Source: Schmidtea nova
Taxonomy: Eukaryota
Direction of reading: 5' to 3'
Assembly (NCBI GenBank): GCA_044892505.1
Contig: CM097883.1
Location: forward strand, 155,124,001 to 155,188,000
Length of the DNA: 64,000 bases
Shown: piece by piece, positions 5,017 to 40,974 of the stretch
Layout: each line of letters begins with the position of its first letter
Position numbering within the stretch: position 1 is the stretch's first letter
Position numbers and translations under genes: made by a program
The notes under the pieces: model-generated
Databases searched by the model: none
What the model was told of the DNA's origin: nothing
The model's input: the letters and a program-made list of their open reading frames with translations, nothing else

Positions 5017-5054
5017 GAAGTACGCGGAGCGTTTGGGAAAGGCAAAAAACGAAT

Positions 5055-10848: not shown

Positions 10849-10894
10849 TTAATTAAATAATATAATAACATATAATTATAACGGAGGCACTACA
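10389..10894 (-). repeat. 5' LTR (506 bp) with TATA-like TATATAAAAAAA ~40 nt upstream of the ATG at 10770
   Basis: Direct repeat of 4499-5004, followed by the PBS. Confidence 0.95.
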
Positions 10895-16995: not shown

Positions 16996-17285
16996 CTACA
17001 ATGACACCCCCGGCAATAAAAGAGAAATACCGAACATTTTCTTATTTAACAAACTTATTTAACAAACTAACTTGTTTAACAAACTAACACACAAACCAGT
17101 TATTACTAGCCACAGTTCACATGACACACTAATTAATTAACTAATTAATTATTTAACTAACTAATTAATAAAGAATTAATAAAGTCGTTTTATAGTATTC
17201 AACTGTTATAAGATGTAAAAATTATTAAAATGTCGTTTCAATTATGCTTGGAAAAATGAATACAAAACAAACTTTAATCATCCAG

Positions 17286-18698
17286 TTAAAAAGCAATGTT
17301 GTGCGCGATTCCACGCAAATAGTCCATGCGGTCTCGTTGATCAAACTCACGAACAATTCTAACTATACGCTCGTTGTTGTCACGATATTTTCTCCGCTGA
17401 GCTGGCGGTGCATGCCCACCGAGTAGTTGATCGATATGCACCATGTTGAGATTGTGTTCCCGTTTCAGGATGCCCAGAAAGCGCCAAATATTTGGATGAT
17501 GTGCAGAAACTGCCAACTGCATTTTTCTGTGCCACCCTTCAATAGAATTATTTGTTCGTGGCAAGTCGTTCTCAACTTGACCGTGGACATTCCAGAGATC
17601 AATGGCGAAGAATGGGGCTCCTCTTCCTTGTCCTCGACGACGCAGACGACCAATGTATGTGTCCTCAAAATAGTCTATCAGCGGCATCATCTCATCTGGA
17701 GCATTTTCCTGCAATGTTTCAAACGATTCGACAACATCTCTAGGTGGTACAAATGCCAGTGCGGGCAACATACGTATTTTCACAGCCAGATCTTCATCCA
17801 TTCGGTAGCGCTCCTGCAGTCCTGCAGTTTGAACTTTGCGATACACATTCTGGGAAAGATGGTAAAAGCAGCCGTTTGTTACAACGCCGGGAAAAGTTTC
17901 ATTGACTGCTGTCATTGCAGCAATTTCGAAATCCATTGTGACAGTAGTTGGCTGCAATCCTGGAAGAATGGTCAACATTGCTTGGAATAAGCGTCCATAT
18001 GTTTCGTTTGTCTTGTTTGGTAGTAGCACATACAAGCATGGAATGACATCTCCACTTGACAACGCATGAACGGTGTACAGTTGGTAGAACAGTTCTGGCA
18101 CAATCTTGAATGTACCGTCCATAAACCAATGAGGTGACTGCTGAAGTAAGGTCATTGTGCGATTGGTGCCAAAAATAAGGATACGTCTTGGATCAGCATT
18201 GCCACTATCGTGCAGTAGAAATATTTCGCCATTCTCCAGAGTTTTGTATTCATCTGGAATATCGAATGCATGATCATTCGGCAGAGGATGCACTGCGTTT
18301 GCTTTCTGTTTTGTATACCGAATAGCACGTCTGATAGTTGAGAGAGGAGCCATTTGAACTGCTGCTGATTGATTCACTTGTTGCATTTCCTCTCCCATTA
18401 TTTGTTGTGCTGTTTCTTGTGTTTGTTCAGCTCTACGTTTTATTGCGGCTCGAACTTGTAAAACTTGAACATGTGAACCATCAGCGGCATGTGAATGAGT
18501 ATTAACATATCCAACGACTGACATGTCACCTGCTATTTTCACCTTAGCTTTACAGATTGACAACCCTTTGCCACTACCACGGCGCTTCTCACATTCAAAA
18601 CTAGTTACATTATCCGCCAAATCCTTTTGTTTTACATAAACATAACCATTTATTGCAATTTTATTTTTTCCACGTATGCTAACTATTGCTTGCATCAT
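17286..18698 (-). CDS. MULE transposase with N-terminal FLYWCH-type zinc finger, 470 aa, intact
   Basis: INGYVY..F.C..R....CKA...HSH (FLYWCH); WFMDGTFK, MDFE.A, GCFYH, RTNNSIEGWH (MULE DDE core). Confidence 0.95.
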   Translation of the reverse strand: MMQAIVSIRGKNKIAINGYVYVKQKDLADNVTSFECEKRRGSGKGLSICKAKVKIAGDMSVVGYVNTHSHAADGSHVQVLQVRAAIKRRAEQTQETAQQIMGEEMQQVNQSAAVQMAPLSTIRRAIRYTKQKANAVHPLPNDHAFDIPDEYKTLENGEIFLLHDSGNADPRRILIFGTNRTMTLLQQSPHWFMDGTFKIVPELFYQLYTVHALSSGDVIPCLYVLLPNKTNETYGRLFQAMLTILPGLQPTTVTMDFEIAAMTAVNETFPGVVTNGCFYHLSQNVYRKVQTAGLQERYRMDEDLAVKIRMLPALAFVPPRDVVESFETLQENAPDEMMPLIDYFEDTYIGRLRRRGQGRGAPFFAIDLWNVHGQVENDLPRTNNSIEGWHRKMQLAVSAHHPNIWRFLGILKREHNLNMVHIDQLLGGHAPPAQRRKYRDNNERIVRIVREFDQRDRMDYLRGIAHNIAF

Positions 18699-19104
18699 GG
18701 ATTATTTTTTAAATTTGATAAATTTAAAATTAAATTTGTTTTAACACGTGGCTATTGCATAAACATAGAGTAGTAGTAGTAGTAGATAAAACATAGATGA
18801 AAACATAGAATATTAATATATTTATATAGTGGCGATTAGTGTTCGTAATACAATATTTCCAAAACATTCGTAATACAATATTAATAATAATATTCGTAAT
18901 ACAATATTTCCAAAACATTCGCTAGATGACAGTCTACACACTCAACCACAGCAAAGAAGATTGCCAGTATAGCGGGATTATTAGAATTATTGTGTTTCGT
19001 CACTTAGCATAATGGTTTTATAAACTTGGATTGTAGCGGAAGACTGAGTTTGCATACCCTTTTAAATTACCCTTTTAAAAAACCCTTTTAAATTTAACCT
19101 TTTA

Positions 19105-19234
19105 CCGGGGGGAGATCACCGGGGGGGAAATTACCGGGGAGAAATTACCGGGGGGGAATCGCCGGGGGGAAATCACCGGGGGGGAATCACCGGGGGGAAA
19201 TCACCGGGGGGAAATTACCGGGGGGGAATCACCT
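19105..19234. repeat. Right subterminal G-run array (inverse of 16815-16995)
   Basis: Repeats of AAT(C/T)ACC(G6-7). Confidence 0.95.
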
Positions 19235-20593
19235 GTTCCCGATTTGAACACAATCGAGTAGACACGTACCTACTCCACTAGACACTTAACAGTATGGCAT
19301 TCCCACTCATACGCTTATTTTTTCACGTCCACCCGCTTACCTCAACATACTCATATATTTCGAGGAGTGCTCTCACCCACTCAGCTTATAACTCTCTGTA
19401 ATTGCATGCTGCCCATTTACGCTCAATGGCTCTCAACACTCTACTCATCTACACTTCTCTACTAAATTCTAAAAATAGAAATTTTTCAATTCGACCGTCT
19501 ACTCGAGATCTCCTCTTGAGCAACTCACAATGATTGGTACTTGACTGGCTTCTATTCATGAACAATTTATTACAATGACGGGAGTGAGCAATTTAATTAA
19601 ATTGGAATTATTATTACCGTCGGGAATTAAATGACAAAATTTTTGTGAACGATCGCGATAATCGCGAACTACTTAATTACTTGAAATTTATTGGGTGACG
19701 GGGAATTCAATAAATGCTTCTACTCAGTGTTATTCATCGCAATCTCGAGTTATGACTGGTCTCGACAAAATTTATGATTGACTCAACAATTATCGTAACT
19801 TTCCAACCGGAACACTACTTAATCGCTAGGATATACGCAATTTATCTGTATAGTTGATACTATTTTAATGATCTATCATTCTGACAGTTTGCGTCGTCGA
19901 AAATTCATGTAAAGGGTCTCCGCAAATGCGCGTTTGCTGACAGATTTAGTAATTACAAAAATTGAGTAAACGAAACTCTGACCCGGCCTCACAACATTCA
20001 CCATTTACGCCTTATAATCTTTACTATTCGTCTTATACGGAGATCCCTATCTCCGCCCCATGATCGGAATAACGAAATTGAAAGCGAAATCCCCGGAGAG
20101 CCCGCAACCCTCGTGGTCGTCCAATTCTCGCATTATCTATGTACATTAATGATAACAAAAACAATGACTTACAATAATTCCAAGATGATCACGAATAATT
20201 AAGTGAGTGTTCCTTCGAGTGTCTTTGAAAATTCAATAAATTAGAATTTGGAAAATTTGCTAATGCCGTTGAAAATTTTTTACTGGTGAATGATATTTAT
20301 TCTACTGACTTGAGCGCCCCTTTTTATACTAAATTTGGCGCTCAAGCAGACAATCAGGATCGAGCTAGCTTTTTATTCGCTAAAAGATTCGATTTCTTAT
20401 TTTATTTATTTTAACTTTCTTATTTATCTTTTTCTGATTATTATTTATTGTTATTGTGATTTCTTATTTATTGTTAAACACAGCAATTCAGGTCTAAAAG
20501 GTAGACTTCCCATTCATTTTCCATAGTTCGTATTCTCCTTTTTATCTTTTGTTTTGTCGTCTATTGACGTCTCTTCTTTTATTTTCTCTATTT

Positions 20594-24468: not shown

Positions 24469-25318
24469 CGAAAAGCATGATCAAAGAATAAAATTGATAT
24501 CAGAATAAAGAAAATAATTTATTAAAATGTTATAGGAAAAATCCCCATTGAAATATTGGAATAATAACAGAGATAGGAATAAAAATAGGATAAATTAAAT
24601 TTGATTGTTTTAATCAATCAATTAATAAACAAAAATCAATGGATACACACATTATTTGACGGAATTAAAAACAAATATTTTAGAAATAAATAAATCAAAT
24701 TATAAAATAAAAATTACAAAAAATAAATAAATAATCAGTTATTAAAGCTAATAAATTAAGTTTAATAGTTACTATAAGTTTATATTTTCGAGTGTTAATG
24801 TAAAGGGATATCAAATGCTTATGTGTGTTATAATTATTTAGATGTTTAGAAAATTGTTGGCGTGTCGTATTAGAAATAACTTTCCATTATTAGTCTTCTA
24901 GGATCATCGGTTGTCATCCTCTCCTATCTATGCTCTCACTAGGGTTCGACACACACCCGTAAATACCCTATTTATTTACGTTGGTGCTGTGTATGACGGC
25001 CGACCGCAAATCGACAGGTGAGCTCCTTCACAGGAACTACTCTCGATTTGTCGTTTGTTCAGGTTCTACCAGACCGATAAATGATCATTTTCTTTTCTTC
25101 TCCTCACACTTTCGCTGGTCACTACTTTCGCGTGGCGTTCGTCAATCTATGATTTAACTCTCGCTACTCTTTGTTCGTTGGAAAACCTTATGAAAAGTCC
25201 CTACCACTACGTTTATTAGTTATAAAAGAATTCAAATCAAAACATAACGAATTATTAAACTTTACATATAATGGTTCATTGATTAACACATTACAACAAT
25301 TATCACATTTCTGTCCTT

Positions 25319-25765
25319 TTACTGTTTGGGGATCATTGATGACGTTCGGTTCTGTTGCTCCTCAAATCGCGGCTTGGCCCTGTGCCGACGTTTCCTTTTC
25401 TCCTGTTGGGTATCTTGGACTGCTACCTCAGCATTCGGTCCATGCACGTTCTCTGGATACCATTCAGTAAAGGTGATCGGTCTAATCAGCCCTTCTGACT
25501 CCGTCATCACAAATTTCTGCGTCAGATGTTTTTTACAATTCTTTAGCTCCATCTGTACTGCGGTCAACTACAATCGACAGTCGTCCAATGCCCTGGTTGT
25601 TCGCAGAAACTTATTCACTATCTTCATTTCTCCCGGGGAGAATAATTTCCCCTCCAAATATAGGATTCGTCGCTTTAGACTCTCAATAGTGCGGAGAAAA
25701 GCTTTAGAGTCTTCTTTCTCCAACAACTCTGTCTGGTGGTTGGCTTGAATTGATCGTTGGCACAA
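25319..25765 (-). pseudogene. LTR-encoded coiled-coil/basic ORF (LIRP family) split by one TAG at 25568-25570
   Basis: LKRRILYLEGKLFSPGEMK..RALDDCRL*LTAVQMELKNCKK..LIRPITFTEW..EKRKRRHRAKPR. Confidence 0.75.
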
Positions 25766-26112: not shown

Positions 26113-26565
26113 TCAAGCAATGTAAGGACTATATGGTAAGTCTGTGGGGTTATCAGACGGTGCGGGACTCAGGACGAATCGTCCCATCTGCCAGAGGTCT
26201 TCTTGAGGAATTGCCCCTGCATATTGTATTAGATATCTTCCCGGGATTTCAGTTGGGGTTTCTACAAAAAACAACGGACAATCTGGTGGGCACTCTTGAT
26301 CTATATTTATCGGCCACTCCTGGCTCCCATGCCAGATGACCGTATAGGGGCTATCACGAAATAGGCTGAAAGATGCGGTCTGCTCCGTACTCTCGAATGT
26401 CCTCGGGTGGTTCTCCAATATTTCTCGGGCAAGGTCCGTTGGGATACACTTCAACGGCATCGCCAGAATCAGGTGATTGTTATAATTGTCTGAAGTATGC
26501 TCGTTCCTCGTGGCAGATGCCTCTCCAGTTGCCGGATTTAATCGTAATGACGTATAACTATTCAT
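26113..26565 (-). CDS. LTR-encoded PLKxIP-family protein (likely ATG at 26565)
   Basis: Homologous to 15968-16516. The ATG is preceded by TTTATAG|G. Confidence 0.7.
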   Translation of the reverse strand: MNSYTSLRLNPATGEASATRNEHTSDNYNNHLILAMPLKCIPTDLAREILENHPRTFESTEQTASFSLFRDSPYTVIWHGSQEWPINIDQECPPDCPLFFVETPTEIPGRYLIQYAGAIPQEDLWQMGRFVLSPAPSDNPTDLPYSPYIA

Positions 26566-27401
26566 CCTATAAACAAATATTAATAATAATTTAAATGAGT
26601 TTCTACTTAAGTACTCTCGATGATTTATGGGCAAACGGTAAATTAGAATAAACGTTAAGCGATACTTAGGTCCCCTTGTCCTAACGTTGGGATACCTGTA
26701 AACTCGGTAAACTCGATTTTTACAGTACCTAAATAAAATGGATATTGGATTTTCAAAAAAAGGGATTCTGTCGGTTCTGGATTGGGTTAAAACAAAAATA
26801 GTAAATTAAACAAAACGCTCTAGGGATTCCTCCATCCAAGACCTAACATAAAAAGCTTACATATCCACGAGCACCCTCGATCATTTCCCTGTAATAATCG
26901 AGTTGGAAATGTGCAAGGTGTTTGAACAATGATGGGCAGGTGAGCTCTATTGCTAAAACTACTCCCCATTTATGTTCACGGGTTCGTCTCGCTGCCGATA
27001 GAAGGACTTACGCTTTAACTTTAATCTATCCGCCTCCATTATCTTTCATTTTAATGTTTCTTTTAGCCCCCTTTCTTTACAATATTTTTCAACTTTCAAC
27101 TTTTGTTTCAGCCCCTTTCTTTACAATATCTTTCAACTCTCAACTTTTCTTTCAGCCCCCTTCTTTACAATATCAACAAATAATCTCTAATCAATTACAA
27201 TTTATTATCTCTTTAATGTTTCTATTGTTTATTAGATTTATGTTAATCTTATTGTTAATTCTAATGTATAGTTAATTTATTCTATATTTTCCTTTAAATT
27301 ATTTTAAATTTTTAATAAATCACATTATTTTCTATACTTTACCATAAAATAAATACAAACAAAAATTATTTAATAAGCAAAATTCACAAATCACAAAATT
27401 T

Positions 27402-27995
27402 CTAATCAAAATATTTAGTAATGTCTTCATCCGATATTGCAAAGTTCATGGTTAGATCAATCTCGGGAATTTCTTTTGATTGTTGTGCCAATTGCTGGAG
27501 AACTTGTTTCTTCCAGCGACGCTGGCGTGCTCCCATCTTGCTCTTCTTCTTCCTTTTACCTTCTGGATTTGTCGTGTTCTTTGGTGTACTTGCTGCTATT
27601 GTTATTGCACGAACCTGAGATGGTTCCTCGGTGTTTGTTCCTTTTGTGCATCCTGCTTTCTCGTCAGCCCAATGCTGATAAGTGATTGGTCGAATGAGCT
27701 GGCTGAGCTCCTGAGTTAAATACGATGCCGTTACAGATTTTAGACATTTCTTTAGTTCCATCTTCGTCGCGTCCAATTCCATTTGGATCTCCTCGTTGGC
27801 TCGCTGTGAGCGTTGATTTTTTATGATTTGTGTTTTCATCTGCTCTGGACTGAACCAGCTTTTCTTCAGGTTTGAGATTATGCCATCGGCTTCTTTTATT
27901 TTTTCCGATTTCCGTAACATTTCTTTTTCCAGGCTGCGAATTATCCTCCATGCTTTATCCAATTCGGCTTGATTAGTTGCTGTGTTGGCTGACAT
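27402..27995 (-). CDS. LTR-encoded 197-aa coiled-coil protein with a Lys/Arg-rich C-terminal motif (LIRP family), 3' LTR copy
   Basis: Intact in both LTRs; WFSPEQMK, LIRPITY, GKRKKKSKMGARQRRWKK. Confidence 0.8.
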   Translation of the reverse strand: MSANTATNQAELDKAWRIIRSLEKEMLRKSEKIKEADGIISNLKKSWFSPEQMKTQIIKNQRSQRANEEIQMELDATKMELKKCLKSVTASYLTQELSQLIRPITYQHWADEKAGCTKGTNTEEPSQVRAITIAASTPKNTTNPEGKRKKKSKMGARQRRWKKQVLQQLAQQSKEIPEIDLTMNFAISDEDITKYFD

Positions 27996-28730
27996 TCTCT
28001 AAAATTCAAGATGGTTTATTAACATGAAATTGGTAGTCTTGATTCGAACGATTCTCATACTTTTGACAGTTATTAATTGTTAATTCAGGAAGAGAAAATG
28101 ATTTACCTATTACACTTTCAACACTGTCGCTATGTACAGCGATCAGATACATTTATTTCATAATATATTTTATTTATTCACGCCTGTGCTATATACAGCA
28201 TTCAGGTTACCAAATTATTTAAATAAACTAAGATCCACTGCCCTATGTACAGGGTTCAGGATAAGCCATTATATTTAATTATTTATGTGGAATGTTTGAA
28301 CCTATAGCCTATTGCTGCTATGTTACTTGCGTAGTAGATCACTACGTTATTAGAGTTATCGATTTTTATATTGTTATTAAAAAATATATTTTGTACAAAT
28401 GCTTAACCGTGTATCTGCCGCTCTATGCCCACAAACCCCAGATGTGACAATCGAAAAATATAGGTGAACACTCGGTGAATCTCAAGGTAAAATCAGATTA
28501 ATAAAATCACAGCTATATCTGTCTCAAACTAAAATCAAACTCAACCCAACTATAAACTTATAAAATCAATTCGGTTATAAAATAAAAACTTCAACTGGCT
28601 ATACTCCAGTGAAAAATAAGGTTAGAAATCAAAAAATAAAAATTCCTACCCTCTTCACGGCGCTTTACACCGGTCGGACGGCCCAACTGTACGGAGCAGT
28701 CGTTTCTACTCGGCACAGTATGCCTCCATT

Positions 28731-29008
28731 TCACCGATTGCACGGTGATCGGAGCCCCTTAAATCATACGTAATTTTCTACTATAACTACGGTATATAAA
28801 TAATATATATTCGCCTCCTTCCACTGATTGCACAGTGGAAGAAGCTCGACCCAAAAATATTCATAAAAGAATGTATACTTATACGTATTTGTTAGCATTC
28901 TACCATAAGGTTGTCTCCTTCCACTGATTTCACAGTGGAAGAAGCTTAATAAAATATAAATAGGTATATAGATATCTTTGTCTCCTTCCACCGATTTCAC
29001 GGTGGAAG
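28731..29008. repeat. Four stem-loops with a shared hexaloop ATT(G/T)CA (second set at 40072-40349)
   Basis: TCACCG/CGGTGA at 28731-28748; CTTCCACTG/CAGTGGAAG at 28818-28841 and 28918-28941; CTTCCACCG/CGGTGGAAG at 28985-29008. Confidence 0.9.
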
Positions 29009-29140
29009 AAGCTTGAATACTTCTAAATTCAAAGAAAAGAATAAATCCTAGATAATATTTCATAAAGTTTATTGATAATCAAATAATGGCTAACAGAAAT
29101 CATAAAACAATAGTAACAAAATTATCAAAAATTCAAAAAT

Positions 29141-29290
29141 CCATACCTGTTAGTTTTTTCAATAAAATTGTCTCACAAAAGTTGTCAATAACAAAATGTT
29201 GAAAAATATCATACATTGAATTTAACTGAATCTGGATCAGTATTTATACTGACCAGATCAGATGCTGAACCAATCAGCGTGAAGCTGATT
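29141..29290 (-). promoter_or_regulatory. Putative LTR core promoter and major splice donor (CCAAT-like box, TATAAATA 29241-29248, Inr-like TCAGTT 29224-29229, CAG|GTATGG donor at 29146); same layout at ~40482-40630
   Basis: Motifs read directly. The TATA+TCAGT arrangement recurs in LTR-A and LTR-C. Function is inferred. Confidence 0.55.
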
Positions 29291-29824
29291 ATCAGATCAG
29301 CACAAATAATAAATTTTATTAACGTTAAAATCAATTGATTTTGTTGTCAATTGCTAGCAATTTGCTATTTTGATTTTTATTATTTTTTGTAATTCTACTT
29401 ATTTGCTTTACTTTCTTTTTTATTTAAATATAATTAAATATCATCTTTCTTTAACACTTTTACATTTTCCATTTACTTTCTTCTAATTTTGATATTAAAT
29501 TAATATTCTTTATTACATTTTAATTCGTTTTTTACTGATATTTCTCGTAATTATATTCATTTAATTTGTTCCTATTTTTTCTTATTATTCTTATTATTTA
29601 TGCTAAATGTGGACCAAATGGTGGATCCAACATCACTCGGGGACCCCTAAAATTGCGTCCCGCAATTAATTATACACTATTACTTGTACTCAACATTCAT
29701 AAAAAATTTTACGTTTGATACATAAGCATAAAGATTCACATAAGGTGAGTTTATTCTATACGTAATCACGAAAAAAATATAAAGAAAATTCAGATAATTG
29801 TTAATCAAATATTTTGTCAAGTAT

Positions 29825-30388
29825 TTATGGTTTATACAAATAGTTCATAACTCGCACTGGATTGGACTGGTTCTGTGGAATTGCTGGTAATTCGTATTGG
29901 GTTTGTATTCTGTTGAGCTGATTTCTCATTTGTCTTCGGGCATTGTCATCATGTGCTGTTGTTTGGTTGATGATTGATTGTTTTTGTTTAAGAACTTTTA
30001 TTCTGTATACTGCGATGAGAATGGTAATTGCGCAGGTTGTTGTACTAATTGTTAATACGATTATAATCGCAACGATCCATCGCTCTTGGTATTGCATTTC
30101 TGCTCGATGTAAATTCTTTATAGTTTCTTTACTTTCTTTTAGGGTTTTTCGAATCTTCTCTAATTTGTTATTGATTTTGCACAGGGTTTGTTGCGTTGAT
30201 ACTGGGTTAGGTGCTGTTGACAATTGAATTTGAGAGATTTCTCTGACTGTTCCTTTTAATAGATTATCTATTTCTTTATAGATTTTATCGGGTAAGACTT
30301 GTAGATTTTCTTTTGATATCGGACGGTCTTCTCTTTGTTGGGTGATCTCGATTACGTTTAGGATTATCAGTATTGCGAGTTTCTTCAT
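29825..30388 (-). CDS. Small predicted type-I membrane protein (signal-like N-terminus, coiled coil, TM, cytoplasmic tail) in the env position
   Basis: MKKLAILIILNVIE; TM WIVAIIIVLTISTTTCAITILIAVY followed by RIKVLKQK; tail contains YELP and NYLY. Confidence 0.7.
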   Translation of the reverse strand: MKKLAILIILNVIEITQQREDRPISKENLQVLPDKIYKEIDNLLKGTVREISQIQLSTAPNPVSTQQTLCKINNKLEKIRKTLKESKETIKNLHRAEMQYQERWIVAIIIVLTISTTTCAITILIAVYRIKVLKQKQSIINQTTAHDDNARRQMRNQLNRIQTQYELPAIPQNQSNPVRVMNYLYKP

Positions 30389-30461
30389 TTCACTTTACAA
30401 ATTTGTCAATACAGTTTGACATTGTTATTTTACAGATATTTACAACGAATTTTTCGCTTCT

Positions 30462-31565
30462 TTAAACTAACGACTCATTGGGTTCGTGAAAACCTTCATC
30501 TTGAGGTTCCACTTGGTTTGTAGGGGGTGGTAACCACACTATCGTGTTTCTCCACATTGTTACTTCGTCTCGATAGAAGTGTGATAATTGGATTTCTTCA
30601 TCCAACAGATATTCTAAATAGTTTGATTGTTCTGTTAATGCTTCGATCTGTTTTTCTAATTCTGTTATTTTTTTGTTTTTCTCTTCCTCTTCCATCATTT
30701 TTATTACTGCCTTGGTGATATCTGTCTCTTTTGGTGGTGTTAATTTTTGTATCAGTTTTTGTTTCAACTCTTCATTTTCTTTGGTTAAATTTAATAAATT
30801 TTCCTCATAGCTTTGTTTTGCTTCCTCTAATTTTAATAAATTTTCTTCATAGCTTTGTTTTGCTTCTTCTAATCTTTCTTTAGTTTTCTTTAATTCTATC
30901 TTCTTTTGAGTGATTACTCCTTGATAACCATTAATATCGCGCTTCATATCTTCCTCTTTCTGCATCCCTGCTCTGAGGTTTGCATCTGATTGTTGTTTAC
31001 TGAAATACAATTCTCTTTCCGATCTTTCAATCTGGTGCATAAGTTGTTTAATTTTTCCTGCTTGCTCTCTGATGAATTGTTGTCTCTTTTTATTCCATTT
31101 TTTGCTCGATATTTCCTGATAGGTTCTCTGTTCTAATTCCTCTTTTAATTTATCGATTTCTTCAAATAATTTCCAATCATCGCTGTACGCCGTTCTTTCG
31201 ATTATTTCTCTTGCTTTCGTATAAGATTCTTTCGCTTCTTTTTTCCAATATCTTGCTTGCTCGGTAATGGAGTACATTTTCCGTTCCATTTCTGTTCGTT
31301 CTCTCTCTCTTTCTTCTCGTCGTTCTTTCATCATCTTTTTATAATATTCTTTTTGTTTCTCCAATAATTCATATAATTCGTCTATTTTATCTTGACTTAA
31401 TTGCTTTAATCTTTTGGCTTCTGTTATTTGTTCGGCTTGTCTTTCTACTTCTTTTTGTTTGTGGTAATATGCGTGGATCCAACTTTCAATTTGTTCTAAA
31501 TGCTCACAAATAACTTCATCTTGATGTTCGGTTACTTCTTGTAAACTGATTTCGACGTTTCCCAT
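30462..31565 (-). CDS. Coiled-coil cargo protein of unknown function, 367 aa, with a 14-aa internal duplication
   Basis: E/K/Q-rich heptads; EEAKQSYEENLLKL / EEAKQSYEENLLNL. Confidence 0.75.
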   Translation of the reverse strand: MGNVEISLQEVTEHQDEVICEHLEQIESWIHAYYHKQKEVERQAEQITEAKRLKQLSQDKIDELYELLEKQKEYYKKMMKERREERERERTEMERKMYSITEQARYWKKEAKESYTKAREIIERTAYSDDWKLFEEIDKLKEELEQRTYQEISSKKWNKKRQQFIREQAGKIKQLMHQIERSERELYFSKQQSDANLRAGMQKEEDMKRDINGYQGVITQKKIELKKTKERLEEAKQSYEENLLKLEEAKQSYEENLLNLTKENEELKQKLIQKLTPPKETDITKAVIKMMEEEEKNKKITELEKQIEALTEQSNYLEYLLDEEIQLSHFYRDEVTMWRNTIVWLPPPTNQVEPQDEGFHEPNESLV

Positions 31566-31670
31566 TTTCTATAATTACAAATATTTTCAATCAGGCTACT
31601 TTTATTATTTTTGTTTATTTATCATTTTATATTGTTTTGTACAGTTTATTTACACGATTGTTTTCTCTTG

Positions 31671-33026
31671 CTACGCCAACCATCCTTTTCTATCTGCCTT
31701 CTCGTTCCTTTCCATTTCTATGTATAAGGTGTCCTCATACAATAATCCCCATATCTTGCTTTGTAATACAAAGTGTGGTTCTCCACTTGCTAATCCACAT
31801 TCTTCTGTTGGTCTGTTACTCGTAACTGCTCCTTTTTCTGTCGTGAATCTCTTTTCTATGGTTTCGTTTAAACCCCTGATTTTTATCATTACTCCTACTC
31901 CTATTGGCCAATCGATTAAATCGTCATATTCTCCTTTGCAAAACGCAAAAAATATTGATAGGTGTTTTCCCATACTTTTCCCATCTCCGTTTGGATATAC
32001 TTTCAATCTCACTTTAGCCCCGTTTTTCCATAAGTAAAATGGTGGGCTTAGTACCGCAGTTTTCTTGAAGCTTCGTGCATCTTCCAATTTATTTCGAAAA
32101 TCCGTTATTTTCCATACATAAGGTGCTATTGGTAAATCTTTTTTCTCATCAATTTCTTGTATTAACTTGTTATATTGCACTTTCATTCCTTTTGCTAATT
32201 CCTTGATGGCTATTATTTTCTTTTCCATCTTTTCTCGGGTTAGTTCAAATTGTTCTCTCGTTTCTAATAATAGGTTCATCATTATTTTATGAGATTCTAC
32301 TTCCTTTTCTAATTTCTGAATTGTTCTATCCGTCATTTCAATATGATTGATTGCTTCTGTTTCTAAATGTTGTTTCATATTTTGTTGAGACTTCTTTTCC
32401 TTGCATCCATATCTGTTGTAAGGACATTCTCTTGGTATTTCTGTACACTTTTTCCAATGTTCTCGTAATTTCACTTCTTCGGTAATTTCACATTTGTTTG
32501 GGCACACTCCTACATACTGTTCGCATATTCTCTCTTCTTTTTTATTGATGTGCTCTTCTTCAATTTTTCTCCTTGTTTCTCGAATTTCGCAATATTCACA
32601 TGCGATTTCTTCCTCTTTGCATTCATCTCTGTGTTTCTCTTTGTCTTTTAAAATTATCGTTTCTTTACACTTTTCACATTCGCTTCTCTTTTCTTCACAA
32701 TTTTCTATATGATTTTCAATTTCACTGATTTGTCCTTGCCATATGCACGGTGGATTTATACATTCAATTAATATGCTCATAATTTCTCTCTGAGTTGCTC
32801 TATCTGGTCTTGTTTCGTCTAATACTATTTGTCCCTCTTTACATTCTGGACATTCTGTTATTTTCTTTAGTTCCAACATTTGTACACATCTGGTGCATAA
32901 TTTACATCCGCAGGCGGTTTGCTTCGGTTTTCGTAATAAATTATTACAATATCCACATACAAATCTCTTGTTCCACTTTCTGTTTGCTGCTCTCAAAATC
33001 TCGACTGCTCGTTCCTCTTTATCCAT
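31671..33026 (-). CDS. Intronless full-length TRAF-like protein (RING, TRAF zinc fingers, coiled coil, MATH)
   Basis: CGYC..LLRKPKQTACGCKLCTRC..CPEC; ECINPPCIWQG; CPNKC; CPYNRYGC; YVWKITDF..SPPFY..KVRLKVYPNGDG..HLSIFF..GEYDDLIDWP. Confidence 0.93.
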   Translation of the reverse strand: MDKEERAVEILRAANRKWNKRFVCGYCNNLLRKPKQTACGCKLCTRCVQMLELKKITECPECKEGQIVLDETRPDRATQREIMSILIECINPPCIWQGQISEIENHIENCEEKRSECEKCKETIILKDKEKHRDECKEEEIACEYCEIRETRRKIEEEHINKKEERICEQYVGVCPNKCEITEEVKLREHWKKCTEIPRECPYNRYGCKEKKSQQNMKQHLETEAINHIEMTDRTIQKLEKEVESHKIMMNLLLETREQFELTREKMEKKIIAIKELAKGMKVQYNKLIQEIDEKKDLPIAPYVWKITDFRNKLEDARSFKKTAVLSPPFYLWKNGAKVRLKVYPNGDGKSMGKHLSIFFAFCKGEYDDLIDWPIGVGVMIKIRGLNETIEKRFTTEKGAVTSNRPTEECGLASGEPHFVLQSKIWGLLYEDTLYIEMERNEKADRKGWLA

Positions 33027-33118
33027 TTCTACAATAATACATACATTGATTTGTTCTTTGTTTTTGATTTTTCTAGAGTTTTATTTTTACATATATACAA
33101 TTTTCCGCTACAATTTGA

Positions 33119-33454
33119 CTATGGTTCGCTCGTTGAATCAGGTTCTATACCATTTTCTAATCCATTTATTACCCAATCTAGCCATTGACCTTTTGATTCA
33201 TCTCTTCTTGATAGTTGATTCATTTCCACTGTTTGTCTCAATCTCTGATTCTCTCTTGTCAGTTCTGTTATTATTCTCTGTTGCTCTTCTATTTTATGTA
33301 ATTGTTCAAAGATATTGTTGTAGCAATCTGCTAATATATTTTGCTTCTCTACCAATTGATTCTGTAGTGCATTGATTGATCGAACTAACGTTTCACATTG
33401 TGCTTTCCATCGTATAGTCAAAGTCATTTCGGTTGTTTCTCCTTGTACATTCAT
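33119..33454 (-). CDS. Small coiled-coil cargo ORF, 111 aa
   Basis: ATG behind a TTTTAG acceptor; heptad pattern; same strand and codon style as its neighbours. Confidence 0.6.
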   Translation of the reverse strand: MNVQGETTEMTLTIRWKAQCETLVRSINALQNQLVEKQNILADCYNNIFEQLHKIEEQQRIITELTRENQRLRQTVEMNQLSRRDESKGQWLDWVINGLENGIEPDSTSEP

Positions 33455-33576
33455 TTTCTAAAATACATTATTATTTTTCTCTTTTCTCTTTTTATATACT
33501 CTATAATACTAATACCCATACTATATACGGTAATGCTTTGTAATTTACAATATTATTTACAGTCATATCCCACCCT

Positions 33577-35499
33577 CTATACTATCATCACTGCTTTTTC
33601 ATCGTGTCGCTCCTCGTCTTCTGTCTGTAAAAATGCTTCTCGGGGTAGTTTCGTCATCCCCGGAATCGTCTTGTTTACTTTATTAATTAATACTCCCACT
33701 TCCTCTTTTTCATCATATTCAAATCGAAATACATGATCGTTTGGCATGACTACCAACATCCCTTTTTGTTTAATAACTTCTTCGTTTTCTTGTACTATTT
33801 CTTTTTGGTTTTCTTCATCTTCCGGATTTGGGTTTATCTGGTTTGTTTCTGGTTCAATATCTTCCTTGTTATCTCTTGTTTGATTTGTTGCTCTCATCAT
33901 ATTAATTCTCAATGGTTGTCGTTCTCTTTCTTGTCGTTTCTGTTCGTCTTCTCTTTGTATTCTTGCCCATTCTTCAGCATGTCGTGCTTGACTTTCTCGA
34001 TTTAGTCGTTCATTTTCACTTTCCACTTTTCTCATCATATTCATTTGTTGTTGATTCGTTTGTTGGTTTCCTCTCGGTGTATTGTTTATTAATTCTGTTA
34101 ATCTTTGAACTTCTTGTAATAAATGTATTTCTTTGGTGGTACTTTTATTCTGGTTATAATTACTCTGTTGATTTTCAAAATTCTGACGGTTTCCGTTACT
34201 CTGTTGATTCGTATAATTTTGTCGATTTCCGTTGTTCGACCAATTCCTTTGCTGGTTGTTTTGTTGTTGGCAGTTCCTTGCCATATGACCTGATTGTCCA
34301 CAGTTATAACATGATCTTTGGTAACATCTATTCTCTGCATGTCCTTTTCTTCCACACTTTTTACAATTTAAATTCGCGAAACATTCTTGTTGCCAATGTC
34401 CTAACTTTCCACAGGTTTGACATTGCTTTGTCTGTCCTTGCGTACTATAATTATTTTGGTTTCTGTAATTTTGTATTTTGTTTCCTTCATTTCTCCTTTG
34501 AGGCGGTGGTCGGTTTAATTGTTGTGAATTCGGAATATGGTTATTTATCTTCATTGCTTGTTCATTTTGTGTCGTATCCATTGCTAGGTAAATTCTTCCT
34601 TCACTTCCGATCATATGTAATTCGAATCTGTTGGCAATTTCCAACGCTTCATCTATTGTTTTACAACCTTGGCATCCAACTTGTGCTCTAATATCGGGTC
34701 TTCTCAATCCTCCCACAAAAATTGCTGCCATTAATTCTGAACTCATTGGACTATTTTGATTAAATGCTAATTTAGCCAATTTCTTTAATTCACTTGCATA
34801 TACTGCATTTGATTCATTAACTTTTTGTTTCCTCATTGAAAATTCTGTAAATGCTTCATTTAATACTTTATTTATTCCAAACGTTTGCTGGAAAAAATTC
34901 TTTATCTTTTCCCAACTATCGAGTTGATCATCTGAATTTTTAGCTTCCAAATATAAATCTAACGCACTGTCTTTTAAATATAACTGAATTCTGCTTCTTA
35001 TCGTTTCTGGTTTCCATTTACATACTTCTACAAATATACCAAATTCTTTTAAAAACGTTTCTAACTTGCTGGCATCTCCATTGAATGGTTCTCCAGTAAA
35101 TTTATCTTTGATTTCTTCTTTATGTTCGTTCATTTCGATTCCGCTGTCTTGTGTCGTTTTACTCTCGTTTCCTCTTGTTTCACTAGTATGCTCGTTATTC
35201 GTTTCGTTTGAATTATTATCAATTTCTGCTTCTACTTCTTCTGTATTTATTGACTCGTTATCTGATGCTTCCGTATTATTATAATTATCGTAGGTTTCAC
35301 TTGAACTTTCTTCTGTTTCACTTTCGTTAGTTTTTGTTAATTTACTGTTTTCGATTTTTGACTTTTCTACTATTACTCTTCTTGATTTACTTCCTTTAGG
35401 ATTTGTTTTCTTTGTAACACTGGTTGCTCTTTGTTTCGATTTACTTCTCTGGGAGTTATCAACTTTTTCGATTGTAGCACTAACTGCTCTTGATCTCAA
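33577..35499 (-). CDS. gag: Gag with Ty3-type capsid region and three CCHC zinc knuckles; true N-terminus probably extends to an acceptor at 35646 across a 1-nt frameshift
   Basis: FNGDASKLETFLKEF..W..LYLKDSALDLY; CQTCGKLGHWQQEC, CKKCGRKGHAENRC, CYNCGQSGHMARNC. Confidence 0.9.
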   Translation of the reverse strand: MRSRAVSATIEKVDNSQRSKSKQRATSVTKKTNPKGSKSRRVIVEKSKIENSKLTKTNESETEESSSETYDNYNNTEASDNESINTEEVEAEIDNNSNETNNEHTSETRGNESKTTQDSGIEMNEHKEEIKDKFTGEPFNGDASKLETFLKEFGIFVEVCKWKPETIRSRIQLYLKDSALDLYLEAKNSDDQLDSWEKIKNFFQQTFGINKVLNEAFTEFSMRKQKVNESNAVYASELKKLAKLAFNQNSPMSSELMAAIFVGGLRRPDIRAQVGCQGCKTIDEALEIANRFELHMIGSEGRIYLAMDTTQNEQAMKINNHIPNSQQLNRPPPQRRNEGNKIQNYRNQNNYSTQGQTKQCQTCGKLGHWQQECFANLNCKKCGRKGHAENRCYQRSCYNCGQSGHMARNCQQQNNQQRNWSNNGNRQNYTNQQSNGNRQNFENQQSNYNQNKSTTKEIHLLQEVQRLTELINNTPRGNQQTNQQQMNMMRKVESENERLNRESQARHAEEWARIQREDEQKRQERERQPLRINMMRATNQTRDNKEDIEPETNQINPNPEDEENQKEIVQENEEVIKQKGMLVVMPNDHVFRFEYDEKEEVGVLINKVNKTIPGMTKLPREAFLQTEDEERHDEKAVMIV

Positions 35500-36247
35500 T
35501 TTATTTCTTTGTGAATTATTAACTTCTTGGTTTTTAACTGTTCTTGATCTCGGTTTACTTTTCTTTAATTTATCAATTTTTCTGTTTCTCTGTTATCGTA
35601 TTCTGATTGATTGGTTGGTTGTTTTGACTTGTTCTGTTCCGTATATCTAAATTAAAAAGTCACTTCAACGATACATCATTGTTATCGTTGCGCTTTTATT
35701 CCTCATTATTGGGTTTCCATTGTTTCCCCATTCCCGGTTTCCCCTTTATTTAAGTCTATTTAAATTATCTATTCACTGGTAACAATTATCTATATGGTCG
35801 TAATAATTATCTATCGTTATCAAATAAATTCATTACTTTTCCCTCAGTCTCCAAATTTAATTTGTCGCTCAAACGCTTTAATTCCCTTGAGTTCTCCTGA
35901 CTCAATTATCATTTTATCACTATTTACTATATCATCGTTACTCATTATTCCCACTATTGGTCATCTCTAATTTCTCATCATTACTCACTATTCTCACTAT
36001 TTCTACCGGTTTTTACGGTCAACTCTAATTTCTCCTATTCTTATTTCTACTCGTATGCATACTGAATCTCTAGTTTACCTAATCATCTTTACTTTTATTA
36101 CTCAAACTCTAATATTCACTATTCTTACTTCGTCGACGACTACAACTCTAGGTTCATATTCCTTTCGTTGCTTATCCGGATAATTTATACAACTCTAGGT
36201 TCATATTCCTTTCGTTGTCATTTAATTTCACACAATTGCAAACCTGG

Positions 36248-36664
36248 GTTCAAATTCCTTAGGTTGCCTATAATCATGAGTTCATATTCTCATGTTACTA
36301 TTATTCACTGCAATCATAAGTTCACATTCTTATGTTGCCTACAATCATGAGTTCATATTCTCATGTTACTATTATTCACTGCAATCATAGGTTCAAATTC
36401 TTATGTTGCCTACAATCATGAGTTCATATTCTCATGTTGCTATTATTCACTGCAATCATAGGTTCAAATTCTTATGTTGCCTACAATCATGAGTTCATAT
36501 TCTCATGTTGCTATTATTCACTGCAATCATAGGTTCAAATTCTTATGTTGCCTACAATCATGAGTTCATATTCTCATGTTGCTATTATTCACTGCAATCA
36601 TAGGTTCAAATTCTTATGTTGCCTACAATCATGAGTTCATATTCTCATGTTGCTATTATTCACT
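36248..36664. repeat. Tandem array of ~6 x 71-bp units, each made of two related subunits
   Basis: The unit start GTTCA(A/C)ATTC recurs at 36248, 36320, 36391, 36462, 36533 and 36604. Confidence 0.95.
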
Positions 36665-37009
36665 GTTATCATATTAACTCTTATTCTCTTTATTTCTTAC
36701 TGATCAGTTTTATATTCTCTCTTTTTATTTATTTTTTCTGCGCGCACTTAAACCTCATTAGATTGTCCCTACCTTTCACCCCAACCAAAATATACAAAAA
36801 GATCGCATTGGTCTACTAATGCAAGATGTGGTGATCAGTCACATCACAAAAGCTTTCCAATTTCCGCGATGGGCCCCTTTCTATACATCTCGGGTAAGTT
36901 GATCAGTTGGTTCCTCCCAATGGGTGCTTAACGGACTACTCGTGAGCAGCTCAAAAATTATTTATACATATCAATTGTTATTATGATTTCTGTCATTGCC
37001 ATTATCAAC

Positions 37010-37210
37010 TCTCATTTTAAATTCTCATTATTAACTCTCATTATCAATTATCATATTAATTCTCATTATGAATTCTCATATTAATTCCTATTAAGAATTC
37101 CCATATCAACTCTCATTATGAATTCTCATATTAATTCTCATTATGCATTATCATATTAATTCCCATTATGAATTATCATATTAATTCTCATTATCAATTC
37201 TCATATTTTA
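37010..37210. repeat. Degenerate short-period tandem repeat (ATTCTCATTATGA/ATTCTCATATTA-like)
   Basis: Read directly. Confidence 0.7.
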
Positions 37211-37249
37211 TTTATTACGAATAATATTACTAAATTCACCATTTATTTA

Positions 37250-37711
37250 TTATAAATACACAGTAATTCTTTCGTCTATTTCGAGATTGCACATCGGGCA
37301 TTTGTCGCAGTTGGCTGCACAGATTCCACAAAACCGAAAATGTCCAAAAGGTAAAAACATGATTTTATTCTCTCTTTCTCGACATATGTAACAGAGTTTA
37401 AATTTCTTAGCTGTCTCAGTTCCTTGTATCGTCCACTTGTGGTATGTTGGAGTTAATTGTTGTTCTAGCTGTCTGCATTTTATGTTTACATCAGCATTTT
37501 CTAATCTCGTTCGGTACCACTTGTATCTAGTTGTTATATCTATTTTGTCTACTCTTTCCATTATTTTTATCAGCTCTGTTGTCTCTTCAGTTTGTGTCAT
37601 GGGTTCTTTGAATCCGGATTCTCTTATTCGACTTATTTTCTCGCATAATTCGTCATATGTTTTGTTTTCCGTGTTTAGAAATTCTTCCGTTTCTTTTACT
37701 TTTTCGTTCAT
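37250..37711 (-). CDS. 153-aa protein with a C-terminal IAP-type RING finger (third Cys replaced by Phe), no BIR domain
   Basis: LCYICRERENKIMFLPFGHFRFCGICAANCDKCPMCNLEIDERITVYL* matches the IAP C-terminal pattern C..C....F.PCGH...C..CA....CP.CR..I....V(Y/F). Confidence 0.85.
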   Translation of the reverse strand: MNEKVKETEEFLNTENKTYDELCEKISRIRESGFKEPMTQTEETTELIKIMERVDKIDITTRYKWYRTRLENADVNIKCRQLEQQLTPTYHKWTIQGTETAKKFKLCYICRERENKIMFLPFGHFRFCGICAANCDKCPMCNLEIDERITVYL

Positions 37712-38081
37712 TGCTAAATAATTGATATTGTTAATATGTTTGTTGTTTTATTTGTTATTCAAAATTAAAGATTTCAACATCTTGTTTCTCTATTTGCTCG
37801 ATTTGTATCATTTAAAAGTAGTGGTACATTTCGTTTTCTGATGTTAAACCTCTCCCTGTTTCATCAAATTGTCGTCCCGACATATTTATTTATGTTTATT
37901 TATTTTATTTTAATATCAATTATTAATCATCTGTTGTTATAGTTATTCAATCATTGTTTTTCAAAATTCTCTGTTGATATTGTTTTTCACTTTTACAAAA
38001 TTCACTTATATTATTGGCTGAGGGGCATTTTAAAACTCCTGGTTATTATTGGATTCAATTTTTCGCACAAAAACCATTTTG

Positions 38082-38099
38082 ATCCCGGCTGAGCCCCCA
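38082..38099 (-). promoter_or_regulatory. Primer-binding site, tRNA-Pro
   Basis: TGGGGGCTCAGCCGGGAT vs the canonical Pro PBS TGGGGGCTCGTCCGGGAT (16/18), 9 nt from the LTR. Confidence 0.85.
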
Positions 38100-38108
38100 A
38101 ATTTATGT

Positions 38109-40974
38109 TGTCGGTTCTGGATTGGGTTAAAACAAAAATAGTAAATTAAACAAAACGCTCTAGGGATTCCTCCATCCAAGACCTAACATAAAAGGCTTAC
38201 ATATCACACGAGCACCCTCGATCATTTCCCTGTAATAATAGAGTTGGAAATGTGCAAGGTGTTTGAACAATGATGGGCAGGTGAGCTCTATTGCTAAAAC
38301 TACTCCCCATTTATGTTCACGGGTTCGTCTCGCTGCCGATAGAAGGACTTACGCTTTAACTTTAATCTATCCGCCTCCATTATCTTTCATTTTAATGTTT
38401 CTTTTAGCCCCCTTTCTTTACAATATTTTTCAACTTTCAACTTTTGTTTCAGCCCCTTTCTTTACAATATCTTTCAACTCTCAACTTTTCTTTCAGCCCC
38501 CTTCTTTACAATATCAACAAATAATCTCTAATCAATTACAATTTATTATCTCTTTAATGTTTCTATTGTTTATTAGATTTATGTTAATCTTATTGTTAAT
38601 TCTAATGTATAGTTAATTTATTCTATATTTTCCTTTAAATTATTTTAAATTTTTAATAAATCACATTATTTTCTATACTTTACCATAAAATAAATACAAA
38701 CAAAAATTATTTAATAAGCAAAATTCACAAATCACAAAATTTCTAATCAAAATATTTAATAATGTCTTCATCCGATATTGCAAAGTTCATGGTTAGATCA
38801 ATCTCGGGAATTTCTTTTGATTGTTGTGCCAATTGCTGGAGAACTTGTTTCTTCCAGCGACGCTGGCGTGCTCCCATCTTGCTCTTCTTCTTCCTTTTAC
38901 CTTCTGGATTTGTCGTGTTCTTTGGTGTACTTGCTGCTATTGTTATTGCACGAACCTGAGATGGTTCCTCGGTGTTTGTTCCTTTTGTGCATCCTGCTTT
39001 CTCGTCAGCCCAATGCTGATAAGTGATTGGTCGAATGAGCTGGCTGAGCTCCTGAGTTAAATACGATGCCGTTACAGATTTTAGACATTTCTTTAGTTCC
39101 ATCTTCGTCGCGTCCAATTCCATTTGGATCTCCTCGTTGGCTCGCTGTGAGCGTTGATTTTTTATGATTTGTGTTTTCATCTGCTCTGGACTGAACCAGC
39201 TTTTCTTCAGGTTTGAGATTATGCCATCGGCTTCTTTTATTTTTTCCGATTTCCGTAACATTTCTTTTTCCAGGCTGCGAATTATCCTCCATGCTTTATC
39301 CAATTCGGCTTGATTAGTTGCTGTGTTGGCTGACATTCTCTAAAATTCAAGATGGTTTATTAACATGAAATTTGTAGTCTTGATTCGAACGATTCTCATA
39401 CTTTTGACAGTTATTAATTGTTAATTCAGGAAGAGAAAATGATTTACCTATTACACTTTCAACACTGTCGCTATGTACAGCGATCAGATACATTTATTTC
39501 ATAATATATTTTATTTATTCACGCCTGTGCTATATACAGCATTCAGGTTACCAAATTATTTAAATAAACTAAGATCCACTGCCCTATGTACAGGGTTCAG
39601 GATAAGCCATTATATTTAATTATTTATGTGGAATGTTTGAACCTATAGCCTATTGCTGCTATGTTACTTGCGTAGTAGATCACTACGTTATTAGAGTTAT
39701 CGATTTTTATATTGTTATTAAAAAATATATTTTGTACAAATGCTTAACCGTGTATCTGCCGCTCTATGCCCACAAACCCCAGATGTGACAATCGAAAAAT
39801 ATAGGTGAACACTCGGTGAATCTCAAGGTAAAATCAGATTAATAAAATCACAGCTATATCTGTCTCAAACTAAAATCAAACTCAACCCAACTATAAACTT
39901 ATAAAATCAATTCGGTTATAAAATAAAAACTTCAACTGGCTATACTCCAGTGAAAAATAAGGTTAGAAATCAAAAAATAAAAATTCCTACCCTCTTCACG
40001 GCGCTTTACACCGGTCGGACGGCCCAACTGTACGGAGCAGTCGTTTCTACTCGGCACAGTATGCCTCCATTTCACCGATTGCACGGTGATCGGAGCCCCT
40101 TAAATCATACGTAATTTTCTACTATAACTACGGTATATAAATAATATATATTCGCCTCCTTCCACTGATTGCACAGTGGAAGAAGCTCGACCCAAAAATA
40201 TTCATAAAAGAATGTATACTTATACGTATTTGTTAGCATTCTACCATAAGGTTGTCTCCTTCCACTGATTTCACAGTGGAAGAAGCTTAATAAAATATAA
40301 ATAGGTATATAGATATCTTTGTCTCCTTCCACCGATTTCACGGTGGAAGAAGCTTGAATACTTCTAAATTCAAAGAAAAGAATAAATCCTAGATAATATT
40401 TCATAAAGTTTATTGATAATCAAATAATGGCTAACAGAAATCATAAAACAATAGTAACAAAATTATCAAAAATTCAAAAATCCATACCTGTTAGTTTTTT
40501 CAATAAAATTGTCTCACAAAAGTTGTCAATAACAAAATGTTGAAAAATATCATACATTGAATTTAACTGAATCTGGATCAGTATTTATACTGACCAGATC
40601 AGATGCTGAACCAATCAGCGTGAAGCTGATTATCAGATCAGCACAAATAATAAATTTTATTAACGTTAAAATCAATTGATTTTGTTGTCAATTGCTAGCA
40701 ATTTGCTATTTTGATTTTTATTATTTTTTGTAATTCTACTTATTTGCTTTACTTTCTTTTTTATTTAAATATAATTAAATATCATCTTTCTTTAACACTT
40801 TTACATTTTCCATTTACTTTCTTCTAATTTTGATATTAAATTAATATTCTTTATTACATTTTAATTCGTTTTTTACTGATATTTCTCGTAATTATATTCA
40901 TTTAATTTGTTCCTATTTTTTTCTTATTATTCTTATTATTTATGCTAAATGTGGACCAAATGGTGGATCCAACA
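38109..40974 (-). repeat. 5' LTR of element B (2866 bp)
   Basis: Direct repeat of 26769-29632, adjacent to the PBS. Confidence 0.97.
38743..39336 (-). CDS. LTR-encoded 197-aa LIRP-family protein, 5' LTR copy
   Basis: One residue differs from the 27402-27995 copy (ITK vs IIK). Confidence 0.8.
   Translation of the reverse strand: MSANTATNQAELDKAWRIIRSLEKEMLRKSEKIKEADGIISNLKKSWFSPEQMKTQIIKNQRSQRANEEIQMELDATKMELKKCLKSVTASYLTQELSQLIRPITYQHWADEKAGCTKGTNTEEPSQVRAITIAASTPKNTTNPEGKRKKKSKMGARQRRWKKQVLQQLAQQSKEIPEIDLTMNFAISDEDIIKYFD

Follow-up and report, generated by a model that had tools for sequence, protein, structure and literature searches.

The window, a stretch of 64,000 nucleotides from Schmidtea nova (contig CM097883.1, positions 155,124,001 to 155,188,000), contains a retroelement on its minus strand, and all features of this element given below lie on that strand. 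Its two long terminal repeats (LTRs) are 99.8% identical, with 6 differences between them; the 5' LTR (38109..40974, 2866 bp) shows TG...CA ends and a 4-bp target-site duplication, and the 3' LTR (26769..29632) measures 2864 bp. The first-pass annotation had described a group of hairpins and a gene for a basic protein inside an LTR. The placement within an LTR was correct, but the coordinates it gave belong to the 3' LTR; it is the U5 part of the 5' LTR that would be carried on the RNA, and there the hairpin-ORF unit lies at 38743-40592. A primer-binding site (38082..38099), which we take to be of the tRNA-Pro type from its resemblance to the MLV site, is located beside the 5' LTR. The most conserved block of the LTR (26860..27000, identity 0.94 in 14 LTRs) corresponds to the U5 end, which adjoins the primer-binding site in the 5' LTR, and is common to the distant host elements at 15066-15182 and 24954-25069; it may have a structural role in priming or dimerisation.

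The internal region (29825..37747) is that of a deleted copy. It encodes a RING ORF, Gag with CCHC knuckles, a 111-aa ORF, a TRAF/MATH ORF, a 367-aa coiled-coil ORF and a 187-aa ORF, the MATH/TRAF and RING genes being of the accessory kind, and pol, with its reverse transcriptase (RT) and integrase, is absent from it. Two tandem arrays with units of 71 and 25 bp (36182-36744 and 37004-37231) are found between the RING ORF and gag, and the length of the 71-bp array varies among copies. Longer copies of the family in genome G000 reach 25-30 kb. Two long copies were scanned with Pfam, and each has one long coding region for Gag, a viral fusion glycoprotein, a protease and ankyrin repeats; RT, RNase H and integrase were present in three of six long copies examined and absent from the other three. 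BIR or BCL2-like domains gave no Pfam match in the ORFs scanned, which cover part of the clades. Because this gene content matches the account of planarian Burro elements in PMC6431247, we filed the element as a Burro-like giant Gypsy, an assignment made from descriptions.

Several observations concern the genomic surroundings and the family as a whole. Within the clade of the window element, RT, RNase H and integrase are missing from three of four long copies, which encode Gag and long downstream ORFs; the RT-less long copies lie at 96.76-96.79 Mb and 136.92-136.95 Mb of C2 and at 64.21-64.24 Mb of C1 in G000 (LTRs L031-L036, L160, L201, L202), and the two scanned with Pfam retain the fusion glycoprotein, the protease and the ankyrin repeats. 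Since LTR spacings of ~22 kb are common, a helper-dependent, envelope-bearing lineage seems to be widespread. The window also holds a Mutator-like DNA transposon (16810-19247, with FLYWCH and MULE domains and terminal inverted repeats made of a 14-bp repeat) inside the LTR of an older element, and an unrelated small Gypsy element (4499-10896) with 508-bp LTRs and an open pol frame.

A spliced gene inside the LTR

A CCAAT box and a TATA box (29238..29277; 40579-40618 in the 5' LTR) show an identity of 0.86, against 0.64 in the upstream U3. This unit is kept across clades, and in the clade of the window element the major splice donor (29141..29149, GT at 29146; 40482-40490 in the 5' LTR) lies 83-125 nt downstream of the TATA box. 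The TATA box is also the centre of a short inverted repeat (29225-29260) kept across clades, which may represent a DNA site or, near the 3' end of the RNA, a hairpin. The donor was found in 81 of 90 distinct LTRs and is the one used in the intron-less copies described below. As the first-pass annotation had pointed out, an AATAAA (29068..29073) follows the donor closely. Between donor and first hairpin this hexamer is present in 19 of 27 LTR clusters that are less than 80% identical to one another, against 2.9 expected, and in 23 of 27 when ATTAAA is included; in the distant clade C the canonical hexamer is mostly missing at this position. Both AAUAAA and AUUAAA are given as planarian poly(A) signals in PMC5068929. 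The conserved hexamer downstream of the donor points to a short R, which the likely poly(A) signal would close, to a U5 of ~2.3 kb and to the 5' LTR as the working copy; the transcription start and the poly(A) site are here placed by sequence conservation alone.

The first splice acceptor (27999..28010) ends in an AG at 27999, 3 nt upstream of the ATG of a 197-aa reading frame, ORF-Y (27402..27995; 38743-39336 in the 5' LTR), and the predicted intron, from 29146 to 27999, measures 1148 nt. Both classes of hairpins described below are missing from only two of the 90 distinct LTRs, L167 and L193. These are intron-less solo LTRs from two subfamilies, found by their gap pattern. When L193 was compared with its relative L209, the match was exact at both donor and acceptor; in L167 the acceptor side is exact and the donor side is consistent in position. 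Since U3 and the LTR end are present in both, the simplest explanation is that they are reverse-transcribed spliced RNAs, and on the evidence of these genomic copies we take the proposed splice, from the donor at 29146 to the ORF-Y acceptor, to be real. This agrees with the earlier claim that the first spliced product encodes the 197-aa protein. The intron-less copies number 2 against 1079 copies of the ORF start motif, in a search whose pattern requires exact motifs and misses clade C. Both are inserted in (TA)n microsatellites. Contigs from four runs, whose kind is unknown, gave among the joints listed none at the position predicted for the intron, a result to which we gave no evidential weight. 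A promoter near the LTR 3' end, with a long U3, was considered and rejected, given the conserved CCAAT-TATA-donor unit and the intron-less copies.

An AG is found 2-4 nt before the ATG in all six accessory ORFs, five of them in the internal region, the 187-aa ORF being the weakest case. This suggests that one donor is used with many acceptors, and an element with an acceptor-like AG at each of six accessory ORFs needs a means to spare its unspliced RNA. A candidate poly(A) site after ORF-Y was seen in 17 of 17 cases, where 11.8 would be expected. In one LTR (L081) a deletion removes the class B hairpins and most of ORF-Y, and a second copy of this type was not found among 40 scored of 502 candidates. 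Two others (L027 and L163) point to recombination, since their promoter part belongs to one subfamily and their ORF-Y part to another.

ORF-Y comprises a long coiled coil (residues 3-100), a flexible linker, a Lys/Arg motif (146-163) that continues into a helix, the two together covering 146-175, and an acidic-hydrophobic tail. The frame has no internal stop in 142 of the best 150 of 8773 candidate matches. Of 54 comparisons with the window copy 39 were measurable, and dN/dS was at most 0.13 in 36 of these; the pooled value was 0.09-0.10 at dS 0.05-0.6, somewhat lowered because only intact ORFs were kept, many of them picked by protein likeness. Judged from these ratios, ORF-Y is under purifying selection, with dN/dS of ~0.1. 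Homologues occur downstream of class B hairpins down to ~35% identity, and the Lys/Arg block is kept in 23 of 23 aligned proteins, with a sequence that differs between clades. The description of an Arg/Lys-rich protein in the first-pass annotation was accurate in this respect, and the block could be merely a nuclear localisation signal.

The predicted model of the protein (pLDDT 71.5, pTM 0.26) shows two helices (3-45 and 50-100), then a disordered linker, and a further helix at 156-175. Residues 1-115 were predicted to form a parallel coiled-coil homodimer (score 0.55, against 0.13 for the best of three controls; pLDDT 83), and the runs agreed in at least 95% of contacts. In calibration, 21 of 30 microbial pairs attained the mark used for dimers, as did 17 of 29 eukaryotic pairs, whereas none of the single chains did (0 of 23 and 0 of 30, respectively); for eukaryotes without an older solved relative the figure was one of seven. 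The spacing of a class-1d leucine-rich export signal is only weakly represented, being matched in the C-terminal tail of 8 of the 23 proteins. No homologue outside G000 was found in the protein database, the PDB sequences or the viral contigs, and the atlas search outside G000 gave a best value of 0.88, which is a lead only. Comparison with Pfam returned sub-threshold matches only, and no known retroviral export protein family was recognised in the 23 members; fold searches gave no match at E 0.001.

Two arrays of hairpins in the intron

The four hairpins of the first-pass annotation, which we call class A, were found on the minus strand at the places given for them, as were the donor, the acceptor, the AATAAA and the ORF, and they exceed chance expectation. 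The fold of the region has a z-score of -6.9, with none of 100 shuffles as good (opposite strand, -6.1), and the class A core occurs 1456 times in genome G000 against 2 for the reversed control. Hairpins 1 (28982..29011; 40323-40352 in the 5' LTR) and 2 (28915..28944; 40256-40285) precede hairpin 3 (28815..28844; 40156-40185), and the loop is U-GAAA-U in hairpin 1 and U-GCAA-U in hairpin 3. The stems had been described as compensatory, which they are, and as 9 bp long; the three long ones have 12 bp, including a U·G pair formed on the sense strand only. The loop needed correction as well, since it is a GNRA tetraloop flanked by two U with a free second position. In 149 hairpins for which the loop was left free, loop position 2 was G in 148, position 3 was A in 64, C in 28 and U in 57, and positions 4 and 5 were A in 148 and 149, respectively. 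The number of class A hairpins ranges from 1 to 5 among LTRs. The upper stem of the fourth hairpin, A4 (28731..28748; 40072-40089), is present and compensatory between subfamilies, as had been claimed, but it is partly broken in some. Among orthologous copies its pairs 3 and 6 are C-G in some and U-A in others, several combinations and U·G intermediates being present, and an A·G mismatch in 17 of 72 copies suggests that A4 is partly dispensable. A further conserved hairpin (28686..28719, identity 0.85) lies right behind it.

The stems of class A change in the manner expected of RNA. Across the genome, one stem pair was U·G in 685 instances and C·A in 10, counts that include inherited copies and are not independent events, and in 208 hairpins we counted 104 wobble cells and 5 A·C cells. 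The wobble excess is not explained by mutation bias, since at the 4-fold sites of ORF-Y (30 close copies) G>A was seen in 5 of 9 columns and C>T in 2 of 11, so that G>A is at least as common. Cells with a change on both sides of a pair numbered 20 against 6.1 in shuffled alignments (0 of 500 shuffles as high), in a sample of 51 of 59 distinct units from which 8 were left out as antisense or off-context matches. The number of pairs with a double change was 3 in class A and 3 in class B, not above shuffles (220/500 and 131/500). In the tests of both classes the copies are all related, and kinship inflates the counts. We conclude that the class A hairpins are selected sense-strand RNA structures. 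A search against Rfam gave one chance match to U2 (E 0.82) and nothing else; an iron-responsive element was ruled out because the CAGUG sits in the stem.

The class A array starts 50-70 nt after the conserved AATAAA, and this position bears on one alternative, namely that ORF-Y binds the hairpins on nascent RNA and acts on transcription or 3'-end choice, so that the polymerase passes the poly(A) signal of the 5' LTR. Tat/TAR and phage N/boxB are the models for such an action; arginine-rich peptides bind GNRA-like loops in the N/boxB case, a principle that the loops observed here would fit. The same hairpins, however, stand behind the AATAAA of the 3' LTR, where cleavage must happen, and a donor upstream of the signal can suppress the 5' poly(A) site through U1 alone, as in foamy viruses (PMC3694450). 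We consider this alternative quite improbable.

A second array, class B, had been missed by the first-pass annotation. It consists of three bulged, covarying hairpins located 125-260 nt upstream of the acceptor (28238..28259, 28184..28205 and 28124..28146; 39579-39600, 39525-39546 and 39465-39487 in the 5' LTR). In hairpin 1, a 3-bp stem is followed by a 2-nt bulge and a 5-bp stem closed by a G·U pair beneath a UANA loop, and hairpin 3 shows an identity of 0.99. The class B core occurs 2697 times in genome G000, against 0 for the control. Double-change cells numbered 34 against 11.6 in shuffled alignments (0 of 500 shuffles as high; 55 of 55 units). The closing pair is G·U in 276 of 280 hairpins, and the third loop base is free (UACA 166, UAUA 69, UAGA 40, UAAA 5), the loop region being palindromic, as a self-complementary kissing loop of a packaging signal would be, in the commonest form only. 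Three differing stem sequences stand side by side. The array adjoins the first acceptor whichever ORF comes next, which suggests a role in splicing control.

The first-pass annotation had also offered palindromic DNA sites as an alternative, and we considered these, as targets of a dimeric DNA-binding protein, together with neutral repeats. The arms are perfect inverted repeats in the window copy, both strands fold well, and ORF-Y is a predicted dimer with basic helices. Nevertheless, the strand-specific tolerance of U·G over C·A leads us to reject DNA palindromes. The three different stems and the G·U closing pair of class B are also contrary to this alternative, as is the conservation of the hairpins, which far exceeds that of the spacers: across 14 divergent LTRs it was 83-84% for A3 and A4 and 91-99% for class B, against 52-69% for the spacers. 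DNA sites or neutral repeats are accordingly a scarcely credible explanation.

In the 90 distinct LTRs, a sample biased to hairpin matches and close relatives, hairpins are confined to the interval from donor to ORF, with none before the donor, in U3 or within 1.1 kb past the ORF start, which bears out their earlier placement between donor and first acceptor. Clade C retains class B and ORF-Y; at the class A position it carries one hairpin, whose base stem is the same but whose loop differs, and its LTR contains an additional gene, ORF-X. A homologue of ORF-Y (25307-25681, E 4.5e-15) is encoded by a host element in the window, and no class A or B hairpin was found in that element. The older elements that host the insertion of the window element carry ORF-X and a broken ORF-Y homologue, and neither hairpin class. 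When the broken homologue near 15400 was compared by profile, the result was not significant in the one frame used, and another comparison gave a weak match. The occurrence of ORF-Y homologues without hairpins in older elements indicates that the protein is more widespread than either hairpin, which fits a co-evolving pair or no pair. Whether the loop type varies together with the basic-motif type could be compared in three clades only, which gives no power.

As side observations, ORF-X (~160 aa) has its own acceptor and belongs to distant clades (15971-16516 and 26116-26565, both on the minus strand; L127, L130, L136, L138 and L142). Its N-terminal LKxLPxxILR is reminiscent of an F-box motif; ORF-X gave no Pfam match and no fold match (best Z 3.1), from a poor model (pLDDT 56). 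Another LTR, L128, has at 2443-2985 (oriented) a divergent, broken second ORF-Y-like gene, ~29% identical, upstream of an LTR remnant.

The near constancy of class B across clades in which the basic motif of ORF-Y differs strongly is what would be expected of a slowly evolving host partner. Host factors could be recruited by the hairpins acting as a CTE-like export element or as splicing silencers, with no need for a partner encoded by the element, and CTE-type elements are established in simple retroviruses (PMC12789967). On the other hand, the hairpins have no Rfam match, the class A loop differs between clades, and ORF-Y would require a separate role. We regard recruitment of host factors as improbable.

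A candidate export circuit

We tentatively propose that ORF-Y binds one of the hairpin arrays and keeps the full-length RNA unspliced and exported in a Rev-like manner, to which we give somewhat less than an even chance. According to this proposal, the LTR would combine a promoter and a short first exon with an intron of 1.15 kb, which holds the two hairpin arrays, and a spliced gene for a basic coiled-coil protein. The short R would end after the AATAAA, and the arrays, in the 2.3-kb U5, would remain only on intron-retaining RNA from the 5' LTR, which depends on R being short. One donor would serve six acceptors, and the ORF-Y dimer would present two basic helices. We further suppose that the protein could bind one array directly, with export of the full-length RNA as the outcome, and that by a division of labour the second array might serve Gag in packaging. 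The Rev-like role is favoured by the combination of a strong first donor with many acceptors, two kinds of repeated sites in the intron, and a first product that is a selected basic protein and a predicted dimer.

Several results stand against the Rev-like reading. The export-signal pattern appears in only 8 of 23 proteins, a homologue of ORF-Y exists without hairpins, A4 is partly unpaired in some copies, and packaging signals, too, are located downstream of the major donor. That intron-less copies are so rare would be explained just as well by packaging, or by an ORF-Y mRNA that ends upstream of the primer site. The linkage of ORF-Y and the hairpins in one LTR is not coupling, and from this analysis the two are a candidate pair only.

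The principal alternative is that the two arrays act as a packaging or dimerisation signal recognised by the Gag nucleocapsid. Their location in intron 1 would then restrict encapsidation to genomic RNA, and ORF-Y would be a separate nuclear or particle-associated accessory protein. The arrays sit behind the major donor, Gag with CCHC knuckles is encoded in every long copy scanned, and spliced RNA was almost never copied back (2 cases found). Copies without RT and integrase abound, and helper enzymes have to be packaged along with them; moreover, a homologue of ORF-Y is found without class A or B hairpins. Against packaging, the arrays precede the primer site by 1-2 kb, whereas the usual packaging leader is between the primer site and gag. 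Moreover, class B loops are not constrained to palindromes, the position of class B beside the first acceptor whichever ORF follows suggests splicing control, and there would be no account of why the first spliced mRNA encodes a basic protein under strong selection. Gag is known to recognise packaging signals as structured elements in the 5' part of the RNA (PMC12789967), which agrees with this alternative; we give it only slightly less weight than the Rev-like reading.

Returning to the Rev-like reading, its strongest form would be a complete Rev/RRE-like switch built independently within the U5 of an LTR, whose intron would offer repeated GNRA or bulged hairpins to a new dimeric basic protein encoded by the same LTR. 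This is on the doubtful side. If it were true, every solo LTR would be a self-contained regulatory gene acting on the whole family, including its many RT-less members. These results partly support the Rev/RRE-like interpretation of the first-pass annotation: the strongly selected RNA-plus-protein module in an unusual place is real, and the Rev-like circuit is plausible. How genomic RNA is spared and selected amid many spliced mRNAs is known for few LTR retrotransposons. This family offers two types of hairpins of 20-30 nt with natural variants, together with a 197-aa protein of no known family, so that export and packaging are directly testable, and, given about a thousand copies, ORF-Y may exert effects in trans, on the other family members as well as the host.

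Comparison with known systems

The element resembles the giant Gypsy elements Burro/GYPSM1 of planarians (PMC6431247) in the CCHC knuckles of Gag, the fusion glycoprotein between gag and protease, the ankyrin repeats, the MATH/TRAF and RING genes, the size of 25-30 kb and the long LTRs. In contrast, the part of that description available to us mentions no LTR-internal gene, intron or hairpins, and no BIR/BCL2 match was obtained in the parts of the window family that were scanned. The expression of Burro1 and its anti-apoptotic gene are treated in PMC8532177 and PMC13465017. Our literature searches returned no report of an LTR-internal gene or of hairpins in Burro elements, whose primary descriptions may cover LTR transcripts. 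An LTR-internal spliced gene with candidate RNA targets is an unusual layout, not met in these searches.

In the R region of foamy viruses (PMC3694450), as here, the major donor lies upstream of the poly(A) signal within the LTR; unlike in foamy viruses, the inferred U5 of ~2.3 kb carries an acceptor and a whole gene. The packaging signal Psi (PMC5035971, PMC12789967) is likewise a structured 5' RNA. In several retroviruses Psi is lost on splicing, and here too the structures lie behind the major donor and would be absent from the spliced mRNAs; in contrast to Psi, the window arrays are inside the LTR, upstream of the primer site, and consist of near-identical repeats. The Rev/RRE system of HIV, Rex/RexRE of HTLV and Rem/RmRE of MMTV (PMC12789967) share with the present module a small basic regulator from a spliced mRNA and a structured RNA kept on incompletely spliced transcripts. 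ORF-Y differs from those regulators in having no sequence or family match to them, and their RNA element is one large branched structure in env or the 3' LTR, whereas short repeated hairpins in a 5' leader intron are found here. Cer1 of C. elegans, also a Gypsy element, produces from a spliced mRNA a novel protein, CERV, predicted to form a coiled-coil multimer and needed to export the unspliced genomic RNA (PMC10309623). ORF-Y, whose role in export is putative, differs from CERV in its 197-aa length and its position inside the LTR with defined hairpin arrays. As a Rev-like protein in a Gypsy element, CERV gives the idea of a Rev-like role for ORF-Y a precedent.
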